Assembly: GCA_965228855.1 (NCBI GenBank)
Contig: CBDDIJ010000002.1
Span: 928,001 to 992,000 of the forward strand
Direction: 5' to 3'
Length of the DNA stretch: 64,000 nt
Source: Candidatus Obscuribacterales bacterium
Lineage (GTDB): Bacteria; Cyanobacteriota; Vampirovibrionia; Obscuribacterales; Obscuribacteraceae
Within the stretch, counting starts at the first letter, position 1; every line of letters begins with the position of its first letter. Made by a program: the position numbers. This document shows positions 18,001-27,000 of this stretch, one piece after another.

Positions 18001-21000
18001 TTTCGGGTGTTGTGCAGTGTTTATATTTTTCGAGTAACTCCATGAGCAAAGCCGTATTTGATTTCACCAGAGAGTCACCTTCTCAAAAGTCAGGAGAGCC
18101 GGGCGAGCAGCGCGATCTGTTTCAACGCATGTTTGATGAGCGTGGCAGTCAGTACGATTGGTTTAAAACAGTTGATGGTGATCGCAATGGTGTTCTGTCG
18201 CAAGCGGAAATGCAGGCGGCGAGCGGGAATTACGCCTTGACCAATTCGGAGCGCGAATTTTTGGCTGCTGCTGCGGAACATTACGAGCTGGCTTCGCAGA
18301 TGGCTGGTCCATCTAAAGAGCAAGGCGTTTCCCGGGAAGACATTAATTCCATGCAGCTACTTCAACAAGCTAGAACTGATGCGCTTTTGCACACGGATGA
18401 AACCCGTGAAGTCGTCCTTCGGAACTTTGAAAGGCTTGACTCGAATAACAATGGCGAGATCAGCCGTAAGGAGATAAAGAGTGCGCTCAGTCAGCTTCCA
18501 AAAGAGGCGGAGTATAGTCAGGGCGCTAAAGACGCACTGCGGGCGGTGAAAAATTTGCAGGGCATTTTAGAAGCGCGCGATGTGATGCGTAATGCCGGCC
18601 TGCTCAACCAGCAGTCGGATGGTATTACTAAAGCAGGTGTTGAAGCGCTGCGGGTGAGCGATGTTGAGAGTTGGAAGCAGCAGTCAGTTATTGCAGAGCG
18701 GATTGAGGACGACCATAGTGGGCTGAAATGGAGAGATCTGATGTTCGCCGTGGGTGGTGGCATCGCCGGGTATTTCCTTAAGGGTGAAAAGGGAATTACG
18801 TCGGGTGGTCTTATGGGTTTTGGAATATCCAGAAAAATTGATAAGTATGAGCGTCCTTACTACGTCGCGACCGATGCCATGGATATCTACAAAGGTTACC
18901 GCGATGCTGGTATGGAATCGATGATGGCGAAATTTGACCCTGCCGGAGCGCTTCCGGAACCGGCGGCTGGTCAGGGGCCTGTTGCGAAATCGGAGTCGCC
19001 GTCGATTAAAACACCGGCAGCGAATTCGGAGCAGCCTTCGATTGAAACACCTGCTGCAGAGCCGCCTTCGATGGATAAACCGATTGTGCAGTCGGAACCG
19101 AAACAAATTCCGAATGATGCGTTCGATTTTTTCGTGCCGAAATCTACAGCGGAGAAAACATCCGCCGGTCGTCAACCTGTTGGTGACTCGGTTCTGGATA
19201 AGTCGAAGTCTCTGCAGAATCGTCGAAAGGAAACCGATTTCTTTGATTTTAAGAGCTAGCTTTGTTTCGTGTTGCCTCGGCTTGTGTCTGCGTGGCGTAG
19301 ACAGATTTTCGAGATTTCGTCGCTCTGGCGTAGCCAAACCCCGCTTTTGAGCTATTCGCCGGCGGGGCGAATCAACGAAAACTGCCGCAACGCCGACGGT
19401 TTGGGTTTATTGGGGTCACGTCGGCATATAGTAGGTGGAGTTGAAGGGGAAACACCGGAGCGGCTTGGGCTCCGGTGTTTCTGACGGGATTAAACGAGGG
19501 GCTGAGCAGCGGCGCCGCTGTAGTGGGACAGCGGGCGGAACAGTTTGTTGTCCTTCAGCTGTTCGCGGATGTGCTCGCTCCAGCCGATGATGCGGCTCGT
19601 GCAGAAGGTCGAGCTGTAGAGTTCACGCGGGATGCCGGCGTGCTCGAGAGCGACGGCGGTCCAGAACTCCACGTTGACGCGCAGGGCGCGGACCGGCGTT
19701 CCGACGGCGGCCTTCGCCTTCTGGTGGGCGTCGAGAGCCGACAGCACTTCGTGCTCGACGGCGCGAGCCAGCTCGATGCGCGGGCCCTTCTGCTTCTCGG
19801 CGACGCGCTTCAGCGTGAGCGCGCGCGGATCATCCGTGCGGTAGACGCGATGTCCGAAGCCCATGATGCGGCGCTTGGCGGTGAGCTGATCCTTGACCCA
19901 GTCCTTGGCCTTATCGACCGAGCCGATCGAGTCGAGCATGTCGAGAACCGGACCCGGAGCGCCGCCGTGCAGCGGACCGGACAGCGTGCCGATCGCCGCG
20001 GTGATGGCCGCGCCGACGTCGGCACCGGTCGAGGCGCAGACGCGGCCGGCGAAGGTCGAAGCGTTGAGACCGTGGTCCATGGTGAGGATCAGATAGGTCT
20101 CGACCGCCTGACGCGCTTCCTTCTTGGGCTTGTGACCGAGGATGCCCCAGAGGTAGCGCTCGGCGTAACCGAGGTTGTTGCGCTTCTTGAGCGGCGCCTT
20201 GCCGGTGTGGATCACCTCGACGATGGCGGGAGCGAGCGCGGAGAGCGCAAGCAGCTCCTCCTCGACTTCGGCTACGTCACGGTTGAGCCACGGTTTGTAG
20301 CCGCGCTGCGAGGCGATCGCGGAGAGAATGCTGCGGAAAGCCGAGAGCGGCTCGCCGGCGCGCAGTCCTTTCATGATGCGGATTTCCTGCGCGTTCGGGC
20401 GGCCGAGCTTCTCGACTTTGGCCTTGAACGCGTCGAGTTCCGCGTCGGTCGGCAGGCGGTTGTAGTGCAGCAGGAACCAGACTTCTTCGATGGTCTTCTT
20501 CTCGGCGAGGTCGACGGCGTTGTAGCCAGCGAAGGTGAGCTTGCCGTTGGTGCCGTCGACGTCGCTCAGCCGAGTCGCACAAGCGATAACGCCTTCGAGA
20601 CCGGCGGCAAACGATGGTGCGGGAGTGTTCATGGTGGTTTCCTTATGGGCAGTGTACTGGGATGGACGCAGTAAGAAGGCGCCTGTAAAGCAGACGCCGA
20701 AGCGCATGCCTAAACGCGAGCGCTGAAACGTAAGCGCCGTAACTTAAGCGCCGTAACGTAAGCGCTGAAACGTGAGCGCCGGAACGCGGGCTCTAAGTTG
20801 AAGTCCGCTTTTCCAGCGGCGGTATAGCGTCGGACCGTTTCCTATACCGCGCGAGGGAAACCGATAATGGCATTCTCTTCGCGGTATGCAAAAACAGCTT
20901 CGTCTATACCGCCGTCGGTATGAGTAGTCGATTGCAATAATAGTAAGTGGTTGACGCTAAGCCTTCGGGGCGGCGTTCAGGGCGTCGGTCTTTGGGGCGT

Positions 21001-24000: not shown

Positions 24001-27000
24001 GGCGTTGGGCGTGTGCGAGTCGGTGCCGATGAGCAGGCTGCCCGGGAAGGCGTAGTTCTCCAGCACCACCTGATGGATGATGCCCGAACCGGGCTTCCAG
24101 AAACCGACACCGTATTTGGTGCTGGCCGTGCGCAGGAAGTCATAGACTTCCGAGTTGGTATCGAGCGCGTTGAGTAGATCCAGTTTCGCTCCGACGCGCG
24201 CCTGGATCAGGTGATCGCAGTGGACGGTGGAGGGAACGAAAACCTTGTCGAGATTCGCTTGCATAAACTGCAACAGCGCCATCTGCGCCGTCGCGTCCTG
24301 CATGGCGACTCGGTCAGGTCGAAGGAAAACGTAGGAACTGCCGCGTGTCGGGAAGGTTTCGCCCTCGTTCCATCGGTCGAGGTGCGCGGAGAGAATCTTC
24401 TCGGCGAGCGTCAGGGGGCGCTCGGCGCGTCCGCGTGCGACGCGATATTTTTCGGGCAGAGAATCGTAGAGAGGCGTGACTTCCGCCAGAGTAGTTTGTC
24501 GTTTCGTCATATGTGTCACCAACTCCAGTGAGGATGCTGTTTAAAGAAAAACAGCCACAGTTGTTCCGCCGAATCTTCTCCGCGCGCTATCGAAGCGCAT
24601 CTAGGGAAAGGTTCTCGATGGGAAACAACTCTGGTGAGTTAAAGAGCCAAGGTCTGGAATAAACGATGTATGCAGAATGTTTCTAGCTTATAAACAGGTG
24701 TGATTTGAGCTTTAATCATGAACACAAGATGAAGACTTGGATAAACGTTTACTGACCCTTGAAAAGTGGCGACCGGCGCGGCTCTTGCCTGCTCTGCAAT
24801 TCGAGGTTGCCAGTTGGAATTTAGGGTCAAGCTAGCGCGGCGTGCGCAAGAAGCCAGTTGGCTAACAATGTATATGCGAACGAAACCGCTTGGCAGGTGC
24901 AACTTATTGATTGATCGATTGACCTGATTGGTGCCAGTCGAAACTTGAACAAACGGATTTTTAGACGGATTGAGTTTGTCACAAACCGCTGATATCGGTT
25001 TGGTTAGATATTCACACGCAGCACACACCAATCGAATGTCACCCGAGCGGACTTGCCGAATATGGCTTCCAGTGCGGTGTACGCCGACGTCAGGTACGGG
25101 CACTCGATGATTCAGGAGGTCACTCAGATGACAGCACGGATGGAGCAGTTAGAGCCAACGCAAGCCGCAGCCGCTCCGAGTCAACCGTTCGAGGCATCCT
25201 CTCCTTCGTTGAATGAAGTCAAAACGGCCACTGCGGGGGCCACGGATAGGGCTCAAAGCACTATCGATAGGACTTTTGGAACTCCTGAGATTCAGAACGA
25301 GAACATGGGCGCCGGTCTCGGTTCAAAAAACAGCTCCGAGCGTCCTATGCTCGATCCGGATCAGCTCATGGGTGCTTCGGAAGTCGGACGCCTCGGCGAC
25401 ACGCTTGCCAGGCAAGGTGTTGACACAAACGATGACAAAGCGGTCAAGGATTACATGGAAAAATCGTACGATCAATACATCGAAAAGGGGCTCCGGCTCT
25501 CGGGTGTGGACTTGCCAAAGAATCCGACCGCAGAAGATCTCGGCAAAGCGTTGATTGATAAAGTGAAGGGTGCTCAAAACCATGACTTGAAAGCGGCTCT
25601 GGAAGACAATCCGGCTGAAGGCTACAAGTCGATGCGCGGTGTTTATATTGACGCGCAGATGCAGGCGTTGAGCAACGAACGGGCTCGTAAAGGGCATTAG
25701 ATAAAGGTTTTTACAGCGAGTGAGTGAGCTGGATGTGCGATTAGCACATCCAGTTTCTCCATATTTACTACTATAGAAGATGGTGGTCTGTGAAATCCCT
25801 ATGAGCAGATAAGGCATGGTATTCCGGAATTCGCCAGAGGGCGGACTTTGCCAAAATTACTACTATAGAAGATGGGGTCGGTAAAATCCCCAAGTGCAGA
25901 CAAGGTAGGGTATTCCGGGATTTGCCAAAGGGCGACTTGTGTCAAAAGGAGTGTGTTGTCTTCGTGGGAATGCCGGATTCTCGGAAATCCGTCATTGTGG
26001 CATAGACAAACGGAGGCAGGGGTGGATGTTTAAGGGGCGAGAAGTCAGGTAGGCTCATGGTTCGCGGGATTTTGTTGACACTGTCTGATATAGTAGAAAT
26101 GTTTCCTTCGGGATTTGCCAGAGGGCGACCTCTGTCCAAAGGAGCGTGTTGTCTTCGTGGGAATGCCGGATTTTCGGAAATCCGTCATCCTGGCATAGAC
26201 AAACGGAGGCAGGGGTGGATGTTGAAGTGGTGAAAAGCCAGCGGAGTTCGGCGGTCGCTGGATTTTGTGTAAACTATCTGGTATAGTAGAAAGGTTTTTA
26301 GGCACAAGGCACCAGGAGGGAGCCAGGGGATGGGACCCTGGGCTCACTTTCGAGGTGCGATGTGGTTTCGTTAGCTAGCCTGGGACTTATCGTCCGAGGC
26401 CGGGGCTAACGAGGGGCGCTTACTTCAGCCCTTTGCGGGTGAGCGACACGCGGCCGCGTTCGCGGTCGATGCTGTTCACCTGGACTTCGATGTTCTGACC
26501 GGAGGTCAGAGTCTCGCGGCGTCCGTTTTCGGAGCCGTAGTCCGCGATGTGCAGCAAGCCGTCGATGCAGTTGCCGATGCTCACGAAGGCGCCGTAGTTT
26601 TCGAAGCGAGCCACCACACCCGTGATGACATCACCCTCCTTCAACGTGCGCAGGAACTCATCCTGACGAGCGGCGCGAATGCTGAGCGACACCTGGCTCT
26701 TCGCCAAGTTAATCGACACGACTTTCACGTTCACTTCGTCACCGGAGCGGAAGAGCTTGGACGGTTCAGCGTTGCGGTCGCCGCTGACTTCGGTGCGATA
26801 GACGAGACCGGTGAGACCACCGCCAACGTCCACAAGCACACCAGCGTCAATGACTTTGACCACGGTGCCGGGAAGGACATCGTCCTTCTTCACTTCCGCC
26901 AGGCGTTCATCGCGCTGCTTCGCGAGGGCGCGAGTCTGGCTGAGGATGACTTCACCGCCGCGACCTTTGTTGGAGTCGGCGCTGAGAATCACCACGGAGA

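Follow-up and report, generated by a model that had tools for sequence, protein, structure and literature searches.

A naturally occurring aconitase–malate dehydrogenase fusion in Obscuribacterales as a candidate enzyme tether within a second, origin-proximal set of TCA cycle genes

The window analysed here is a 64,000-nt stretch of the genome of a Candidatus Obscuribacterales bacterium (contig CBDDIJ010000002.1, positions 928,001 to 992,000). As proposed in an initial annotation of this DNA, a single frame on the minus strand, at positions 21022-24510, joins an aconitase (Acn) to a malate dehydrogenase (MDH). The frame has 1,162 codons and no internal stop, both domains are intact, and their Pfam ranges were recovered exactly as first given. 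Residues 1-763 (22222..24510, minus strand) make up a mitochondrial-type aconitase, delimited with NCBIfam model TIGR01340 (1056.9 bits against a cut-off of 825.35, covering positions 1-744 of the 745 in the model) and by alignment to pig aconitase 5acn. Cluster cysteines 363, 426 and 429 and the His, Asp, Arg and Ser motifs of the active site are identical to those of the pig enzyme and unchanged in 13/13 fused protein clusters; presumably, they have the roles generally assigned to them. Residues 847-1155 (21046..21972, minus strand) correspond to an LDH-like NAD malate dehydrogenase whose closest solved relative is 1guy. The possibility raised earlier, that this domain is some other 2-hydroxyacid dehydrogenase, is unlikely, since it scores above the cut-off of the NCBIfam MDH model (TIGR01763, 390.4 against 351.85) and below that of the L-LDH model (TIGR01771, 227.2 against 303.55), and since residues Arg928, Arg934, Asp994, Arg997, His1021 and Asp879, aligned to 1guy, are unchanged in all 13 clusters. 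We take Arg928, Arg934 and Arg997 to be the substrate-loop arginines, Asp994 and His1021 to act as a pair, and Asp879 to be the NAD-selecting aspartate. Relative to genome G007, synonymous and non-synonymous codon changes number 93 and 16 in the aconitase part and 22 and 1 in the MDH part, a pattern indicative of purifying selection on both domains. MDH makes oxaloacetate and aconitase takes citrate; the joined active sites are thus not consecutive, citrate synthase (CS) being encoded by a separate gene.

That gene lies directly downstream on the same strand (19490..20632), confirming the reported adjacency. It specifies a probable CitA-type enzyme of 380 aa, assigned with Pfam and NF009005; the latter is the best model (319.2 bits, just short of its cut-off of 332), while the methylcitrate synthase model TIGR01800 gives 309.2 against 421.3. 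His186, His222, His261 and Glu322 are invariant or nearly so among 24 sequences. Glu322 occupies the position of the catalytic Asp of most citrate synthases, and the same Glu is present in Bacillus subtilis citrate synthase 1 (2c6x). Among the matches listed, full-length sequences outside this clade are at most 44% identical to it. The G007 orthologue begins at the position equivalent to 20632, and the alternative start at 20707 falls inside a strain-specific insert; translation therefore likely starts at 20632. This insert, a 329-nt unstranded feature lying between the fusion and the CS gene (20686..21014), is missing from contigs of sequencing runs X8 and X12 and from G007, where the gap between the two genes measures 64 nt. 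It contains 14-nt and 15-nt tandem repeats and a long hairpin and is present once in the genome; the interval 20633-21021 has a folding z-score of -3.0. An 11-bp inverted repeat read from the sequence just past the CS stop (19450..19480, minus strand) is a possible transcript end. A terminator scan gave matches at chance level, the repeat not among them, and no sigma-70 promoter was found between 19200 and 25100 (0.9 expected).

Of 107 Obscuribacterales genomes, 9 have an open Acn-MDH frame; they represent 3 genera. Among 57 hits in the protein collection, there were 13 Acn+MDH and 9 close isocitrate dehydrogenase (IDH)+MDH clusters, the numbers originally reported. The domain fused to IDH had been described as the same one; however, it is only 58-59% identical, no closer than housekeeping MDHs, and falls outside the clade of the present MDH. 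Unfused paralogues do exist in this genome, as had been noted (aconitase 64%, MDH 56%, citrate synthases 36% and 32% identical). Of the 9 fused genomes, 8 have the CS gene next after the fusion, at a distance of 64-120 nt in the five measured. No CS occurs within the 15-kb locus of genome G048, and in the sister genus acn and mdh are adjacent with no CS beside them. A search of the literature returned no natural Acn-MDH fusion.

Beyond what the initial annotation noted, the fusion and its CS neighbour belong with other TCA genes to a second set rich in GC3 (set 2), which lies within an origin-centred, peptidase-rich block. The locus had been called GC-rich and origin-proximal, and both statements hold: GC3 is 0.80 and 0.85 for the two genes against a genome median of 0.55, and dnaA (793 kb on contig C2) and the GC-skew minimum (789 kb) lie about 160 kb away. 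In 5/5 genomes, dnaA sits among block genes. Set 2 comprises fumarase, MDH, CS, aconitase and NADP-IDH, plus PEPCK, alongside the housekeeping set; 2-oxoacid oxidoreductase, succinyl-CoA ligase and succinate dehydrogenase were found only outside the block. With genes called by simple ORF scoring rather than taken from an annotation, a peptidase domain was present in 32 of 198 high-GC3 genes against 3 of 78 control genes (Fisher p = 0.004). Beta-oxidation genes fall in the same high-GC3 class. We rejected the idea of a glyoxylate cycle module, isocitrate lyase having no match in this 95%-complete genome and malate synthase being represented by one gene outside the block. Likewise unsupported is a recent acquisition of all of set 2 from a different phylum: its aconitases and MDHs fall together with other copies from this family, in trees with few outgroups (24 of 72 outside MDHs kept; no aconitase from outside the class).

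The two domains are separated by about 80 residues. These include a variable Ala/Thr/Ser/Gly spacer (residues 764-834; 22009..22221, minus strand) and a Lys/Arg-rich patch directly preceding the MDH methionine (residues 835-846; 21973..22008, minus strand), the latter recognised from charge and Shine-Dalgarno (SD) energies. Across fused proteins, linkers range between 29 and 130 residues, cannot be aligned and share 18-50% identity, whereas the domains share 74-95%. In a structure model built from a 71-row alignment, both flanking domains are confident and pLDDT is below 50 for residues 780-845, the spacer being predicted disordered from residue 780 on; the pTM of 0.64 approximates the aconitase share of the chain. 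A 13-row model was set aside (mean pLDDT of 52 in the aconitase part), and a 112-row alignment was dropped for its misplaced MDH-only rows. Compared to G007, the spacer has 6 synonymous and 9 non-synonymous codon changes, the basic patch none of either kind. None of 8 linkers contains an in-frame stop; their other two frames contain 28. The last 15 linker residues include 3-9 Lys or Arg in 13/13 clusters, and the net charge is +5.4 against 2.5±0.4 in linker shuffles. At the DNA level, the basic patch overlaps what was once the ribosome-binding site of a separate mdh gene, now decayed, and could in part reflect the purine-rich initiation sequence of that gene.

Unfused set-2 aconitases end in a disordered tail followed by an amphipathic helix, probably a membrane anchor. 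By eye, an aromatic/basic-ended tail is found in 21/21 of them. A strict helix test, whose thresholds were set after the tails had been seen, was passed by 14 and failed by 7 of the 21, against passes in 0/17 housekeeping aconitases and 28/3,471 ordinary proteins. On sequence comparison, the spacer of the fusion is a remnant of this C-terminal tail: the terminal helix has been exchanged for MDH and the basic patch kept. Neither terminal helices (1/264 against 28/3,471) nor low-complexity tails (10/264 against 80/3,471) turned out to mark the GC3-rich class in general.

Does the locus really yield one chain? All sources are metagenomic assemblies, and an assembly or sequencing artefact might join two genes. 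The chance of this is negligible: the frame is open in nine genomes whose linkers differ in length and are all in frame, the 13 clusters come from four kinds of source, and a contig of run X12 runs through the entire junction without a gap, differing by 53 substitutions. None of the sequencing runs listed for this DNA was of RNA. Raw-read run X21 gave short unrelated matches only; run X8 is probably DNA and X3 is maybe the source of this DNA, and neither was counted for expression or as independent support. A real frame might still give mostly separate enzymes, either because cleavage at the basic patch splits a polyprotein or because MDH is additionally made from an internal start. Dibasic sites adjoin the junction in every fused protein, the block encodes many peptidases, and the former MDH start methionine is kept in 10 of 13 clusters. 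Furthermore, 4 of 9 fused genomes retain an SD of -4.1 kcal/mol or stronger before MDH (strong in G001 and G003, at -9.5, moderate in G005 and G006). Against this, the SD of the window gene (-2.9 kcal/mol) is ordinary; the median for internal ATGs is -2.4, 9 of 25 other internal ATGs have one as strong, and all 18 unfused set-2 MDH starts are preceded by an SD of -4.8 or stronger. Genome G049 has none, and the methionine has become leucine in 3 of 13 clusters. Because of this SD decay and loss of the start codon, the joined chain would be the product at least in those clusters. We consider two products from one frame unlikely.

Acn-MDH fusions do not form one clade (AU p = 0.011) and probably arose twice within the set; a single origin, suggested by an earlier tree, was dropped once P0008 was added. 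Two further clusters carry Acn-CS fusions with short linkers. That the one in genome G012 is a sequencing error was ruled out, as P0059, 96% identical and found in several sources, is also fused.

The pair had been interpreted as a hard-wired MDH-CS-aconitase metabolon that channels malate to isocitrate. The part of this proposal that stands is a conserved, selected fusion of intact enzymes with a CS gene beside it in most fused genomes, one of several fusions among MDH, CS, aconitase and IDH in the family. Hard-wiring and channelling are not supported: the joined pair shares no intermediate, the linker lacks fixed length, sequence or predicted structure, and the acn-mdh pair of the sister lineage has no CS. 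The mitochondrial complex has been modelled with an MDH of a different family. In the strict version, a CS dimer would dock between both domains and oxaloacetate and citrate would pass directly between active sites. The placement of the CS gene and the existence of short-linker Acn-CS fusions favour such docking, as does the positively charged groove modelled in the mitochondrial MDH-CS-aconitase complex (PMC5976638, PMC6750097); by our computation, the local concentration that the tether provides would also suffice to saturate a weak interaction. However, no fixed geometry is apparent, and proximity alone captures less than 0.1% of diffusing product with assumed kcat/Km values up to 1e7, in agreement with PMC5976638. 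Given also the loci lacking CS, we find direct hand-over rather improbable. The main rival, to which we assign a minor but appreciable share of the probability, is a tolerated operon fusion: with a long permissive tail and changing operons, small deletions would join the next gene in frame, the gain would be co-expression with no benefit from proximity, and a decayed downstream start would lock the fusion in. Accordingly, the partner tracks gene order (MDH where mdh comes next, CS where CS does), linker length is free and the spacer drifts, the SD and methionine have decayed to differing degrees, and housekeeping copies are kept in 9/9 fused genomes. An easy, tolerated fusion also fits the finding that LDH-like MDHs throughout bacteria occur joined to a wide range of unrelated neighbours, often with just one contig as the source. 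Nor is the fusion needed, since most set-2 genomes keep these enzymes unfused and 70 of 107 genomes lack such a CS. What this rival would leave unexplained is that a single family has produced no fewer than three types of fusion, probably through five events, within one set of four enzymes, and that the basic patch survives where the spacer is only 29-37 aa long and where the SD is gone. Moreover, losing a helix that every unfused relative retains would have to be harmless every time. The genomes being kin, none of the genome counts are independent.

In our preferred explanation, in which we place about as much belief as doubt, the linker acts as a tether: it gathers enzymes around an MDH hub and holds them at a fixed ratio. 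Repeated fusion within the set (Acn-MDH, Acn-CS, IDH-MDH) points to a benefit in keeping enzymes together rather than in direct substrate hand-over. Judging by comparison, fusion took place where mdh immediately followed acn, whose terminal helix and stop codon disappeared so that the tail continued into MDH. We take the LDH-like MDH family to be homotetrameric; the product would then most likely be an MDH tetramer bearing four aconitases on flexible arms, and the basic patch at the base of each arm could bind an acidic partner, a membrane or nucleic acid. The two sites would work independently, one converting malate to oxaloacetate, the other citrate to isocitrate, with the presumably co-transcribed CS performing the middle step, either free in solution or as a client loosely associated with the cluster. 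With assumed polymer values, an 80-residue tether gives an effective concentration of about 1 mM. The gain would be 1:1 production and high local enzyme concentration while the block is active, probably during digestion of biomass; any channelling would be probabilistic.

More broadly, and rather speculatively, Obscuribacteraceae might run a second, separately regulated catabolic programme from around the origin, with peptidases, lipases, starch hydrolases, beta-oxidation, its own sigma factor and S1 proteins. The role in feeding is suggested by gene content; no description of Obscuribacter as a predator was found in the literature. Enzymes from fumarate to 2-oxoglutarate would be built into a localised cluster, membrane helix and covalent tethers being interchangeable and having emerged repeatedly (Acn-MDH twice, Acn-CS twice, IDH-MDH once). 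If so, the family holds a natural series of genetically encoded TCA clusters, built from the same enzymes throughout but with differing anchors, tether lengths and partners. Regardless, the origin-centred class offers a lead on how these uncultured, non-photosynthetic relatives of cyanobacteria feed.

It has yet to be settled whether TCA enzymes that do not act in succession associate, and for what reason (PMC11189929). In B. subtilis, MDH drives clustering with one such enzyme, ICD (PMC11189929), and the interaction set, as summarised from Meyer et al. 2011 in PMC6750097, includes the enzymes from fumarate to succinyl-CoA, PEPCK and glutamate synthase. The likeness lies in an LDH-like MDH paired with a non-consecutive enzyme and in an interaction set overlapping the enzymes duplicated here. 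That assembly, however, is transient, non-covalent, formed from a single gene set and partnered by ICD; the present one is covalent, uses a mitochondrial-type aconitase and belongs to a spare set. The mitochondrial metabolon (PMC5976638, PMC6750097) shares all three activities and the aconitase type, but there MDH-CS is the strong, channelled contact, whereas here the covalent pair skips CS, and MDH and CS are of other families. Solved or modelled relatives (TIGR01340 aconitase; TIGR01763/1guy MDH; CitA-type 2c6x/NF009005) belong to the same families, probably so in the case of CS, and have the same catalytic motifs, yet no solved relative is fused or tailed. The family provides matched natural variants of one set: unfused enzymes with a terminal helix, Acn-MDH chains whose tethers span 29 to 130 residues, and the Acn-CS and IDH-MDH fusions. 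As all of them are ordinary soluble enzymes amenable to expression and assay, clustering, stoichiometry and channelling are directly separable. A covalent MDH-CS link has reportedly been engineered for the study of channelling, in work cited by PMC6750097; that fusion is artificial and consecutive, the Acn-MDH one natural and non-consecutive. Natural CS+MDH chains occur in P0032 and P0035.

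The fused gene occupies positions 21022-24510 of the window on the minus strand, as a single frame of 1,162 codons. Residues 15-759 exceed the curated cut-off of the mitochondrial-type aconitase model and residues 848-1152 that of the bacterial malate dehydrogenase (MDH) model; the MDH part scores under the curated cut-off of the L-lactate dehydrogenase model. The Pfam ranges in the initial annotation were reproduced, and the unfused paralogues of aconitase, MDH and citrate synthase that it listed are present elsewhere in the genome. In alignments, the active-site motifs agree with the structures of pig aconitase and of a Chloroflexus-type MDH (PDB 1guy) and are invariant in all 13 clusters of fused proteins. 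Directly downstream on the same strand lies a citrate synthase gene, and citrate synthase is the next gene in 8 of the 9 fused genomes. The window enzyme resembles CitA-type proteins, scores slightly below the NF009005 cut-off and, like 2c6x, has Glu at the position of the usual catalytic Asp. Converging on its gene is one for a 415-aa EF-hand protein of ordinary GC3 (18012-19259, plus strand). A short S1-domain protein (365 aa, GC3 0.73) is encoded at 26420-27517 on the minus strand, and an S1-domain protein is also close to the fusion in three relatives (G005, G006, G007). The nearest named loci carry the titles Candidatus Obscuribacterales, Obscuribacteraceae or Obscuribacter.

The aconitase-MDH fusion described in the initial annotation was confirmed. 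Among the order's 107 genomes, 9 contain the joined open frame, namely 7 of the 8 belonging to the genus and a single genome from each of two further genera; none of the 13 genomes that represent other families in the class showed it. Scoring of 7,996 candidates from the protein collection gave 13 clusters carrying both enzymes among 57 hits, and a contig from sequencing run X12 covers the entire linker without a gap, differing by 53 substitutions. The eight linkers examined are free of in-frame stops, whereas their other frames hold 28. Compared with the relative G007, synonymous and non-synonymous codon changes number 93 and 16 in the aconitase, 22 and 1 in the MDH, 6 and 9 in the spacer, and 0 and 0 in the last 12 linker codons.

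Fusion linkers range from 29 to 130 residues and are 18-50% identical to that of the window, versus 74-95% for the domains. What is conserved is the helix ending the aconitase and a Lys/Arg patch preceding the MDH, with 3-9 basic residues per 15 in 13 of 13 clusters; its net charge is +5.4, versus 2.5±0.4 in 5,000 shuffles, the sequences being kin rather than independent. In a structure model (71 rows) both domains are confident, and residues 780-845 have pLDDT below 50 and no structure. Since the pTM of 0.64 is close to the aconitase share of the chain, the model suggests that the domains lack fixed packing against each other. The protein comprises two catalytic domains, both intact, joined by a free tether. 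The linker of G048 (L158:4794-8294) contains 13 cysteines in a metallothionein-like run, and many aconitase tails of the second, GC3-rich TCA set (set 2) hold smaller Cys clusters, which may bind metal.

The aconitase part of the fusion falls in a second clade among the aconitases of the family (SH-aLRT 88-97 in two trees; 100/99 in a third). Each of the 21 unfused members examined finishes with a variable tail, often rich in Cys, and then a terminal segment that is aromatic and basic. A strict amphipathic-helix test, its thresholds chosen after the tails had been seen, was passed by 14 of these 21, by none of 17 housekeeping aconitases and by 28 of 3,471 ordinary proteins. At seven loci of the sister genus the gene immediately after such a tailed aconitase is an mdh of its own, equipped with a good ribosome-binding site (SD). 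The fusion thus exchanged helix and stop for MDH. When cluster P0008 is included the fused aconitases fail to form one clade (AU p = 0.011); two origins are more likely than a single origin with a later split that regained the helix. In G092 (L174:4632-7105), a set-2 aconitase behind mdh is broken into two frames, an error or a pseudogene.

The former mdh start is decaying in the fused genes. In pairing with the 16S tail, all 18 unfused set-2 MDH starts examined reach -4.8 kcal/mol or stronger, and the values before MDH in fused genes are -9.5 (two), -4.9, -4.1, -3.2, -2.9 (the window gene and G007) and -1.1 kcal/mol; the G048 fusion has no Met at this position.

GC3 is bimodal in the genome (median 0.55), and the few hundred genes above 0.7 are nearly confined to contig C2 (0-1.1 Mb), contig C4 and the end of contig C5. 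The start of C2 and C4 were excluded from block analysis for their foreign look by eye: C2:1-100000 and C4 carry very GC-rich genes of alphaproteobacterial appearance (SecA, ArgJ and aspartokinase duplicates), possibly contamination or a chimeric join. dnaA and the GC-skew minimum are at 789-794 kb. Around dnaA (C2:100000-1120000) GC3-rich genes are interleaved with ordinary ones, and MoxR-DUF58-vWA sets, PrkA-SpoVR-DUF444 and S1 paralogues also occur; within the window the class covers 1-15250, 19490-27517, 30898-32794, 50463-53158 and 61877-63155. C2 beyond 100 kb has 212 high-GC3 genes of at least 200 aa, 198 of them outside the window; by our own count, 32 of these 198 encode a peptidase domain, versus 3 of 78 control genes (p = 0.004). 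The class also includes four patatins, FadA/B/D/E, starch hydrolases, nucleoside catabolism, NAD salvage, PEPCK, a tailed NADP-IDH, a sigma factor and S1 proteins. The soluble steps from fumarate to 2-oxoglutarate are duplicated, and a second fumarase-like gene (GC3 0.64) lies in the block region; SDH, succinyl-CoA ligase, 2-oxoacid oxidoreductases and malate synthase were found outside the block only, and isocitrate lyase was not found in the genome. dnaA also lies among homologues of block genes in G065, G091, G041 and G012, of which G041 has the block and lacks the second TCA set. Set-2 type citrate synthase was found in 37 of 107 genomes. In G004, whose housekeeping aconitase is nearly identical to that of G001, no close FadB, second PEPCK or set-2 TCA genes were found, perhaps through block loss or a binning effect. 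Other observations are a GC3-rich paralogue of ClpC that is divided between two frames (C2:344978-347466), a retron-like reverse transcriptase (window 16459-17628, plus strand) below the cut-offs of retron models, with a G007 counterpart of only 268 aa, and an RtcB-family RNA ligase-like gene (33069-34361, minus strand).

The initial annotation saw in the gene pair a hard-wired MDH-citrate synthase-aconitase metabolon channelling malate to isocitrate. This reading is supported in part. The fusion of intact enzymes and the co-encoded citrate synthase stand; the joined sites cannot channel directly to one another because aconitase and MDH share no intermediate, and the metabolon as proposed is improbable. 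By calculation with assumed constants, proximity alone would capture <0.1% of diffusing product and the tether gives an effective concentration of ~1 mM, consistent with enzyme clustering and probabilistic channelling of the sort that PMC5976638 describes. Clustering of the non-consecutive pair MDH-ICD in B. subtilis is reported in PMC11189929. That the tether clusters enzymes, with channelling probabilistic at most, has in our estimate about an even chance. A tolerated operon fusion, the main rival, is less likely; in its favour the fusion partner always follows gene order, and against it the Lys/Arg patch is kept in every cluster. Two products from one frame are unlikely; the SD range across fused genes makes an internal start possible in some lineages and does not indicate one for the window gene.

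The protein is probably an MDH tetramer bearing four aconitases; acetyl-CoA could be supplied by the block's beta-oxidation, and set 2 might be expressed while the cell feeds. A relative, Vampirovibrio, uses many proteases and glycosidases to digest algal cells (PMC4451040); no comparable predation report for Obscuribacter was found in the literature as far as it was accessible. Within the same limits, no helix-tailed bacterial aconitases, no second TCA set in Obscuribacterales and no natural aconitase-MDH fusion were found, the last including the available text of PMC11237513; supplementary fusion tables or subscription papers could mention one.

The window gene naturally couples, in one chain, two TCA enzymes that do not act consecutively, and is one of several convergent fusions in the duplicated set. 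An operon of G012 (L031:7929-11336) consists of mdh, an aconitase-citrate synthase fusion (linker ~8 residues) confirmed by cluster P0059, and idh; P0058 is a second such fusion, apparently a separate case. Joining consecutive enzymes, these are better suited to testing channelling than the window gene is. In G115 (L167:6495-8816) and G116 a set-2 type citrate synthase precedes an IDH-MDH fusion (clusters P0015-P0023), the covalent counterpart of the B. subtilis interaction. Its MDH, earlier held to be the same domain as that of the window fusion, falls outside the set-2 MDH clade in a quick tree (78/126 rows) and is therefore a different one. Elsewhere in the protein collection MDH is joined to citrate synthase, PEPCK, succinyl-CoA ligase, aminotransferases and further partners in unrelated records, most of them single contigs; some of those from other bacteria with one of these four partners (P0025, P0026, P0029-P0033, P0035) may be read-through errors. 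The second NADP-IDH (L214:2644-4236; C2:900643-902235) bears a 113-residue Ala/Thr/Pro/Ser tail, and many set-2 MDHs have similar tails of 20-140 residues. In G013 (C33:135438-136652) an IDH match lies within an 860-codon open frame, possibly another fusion.
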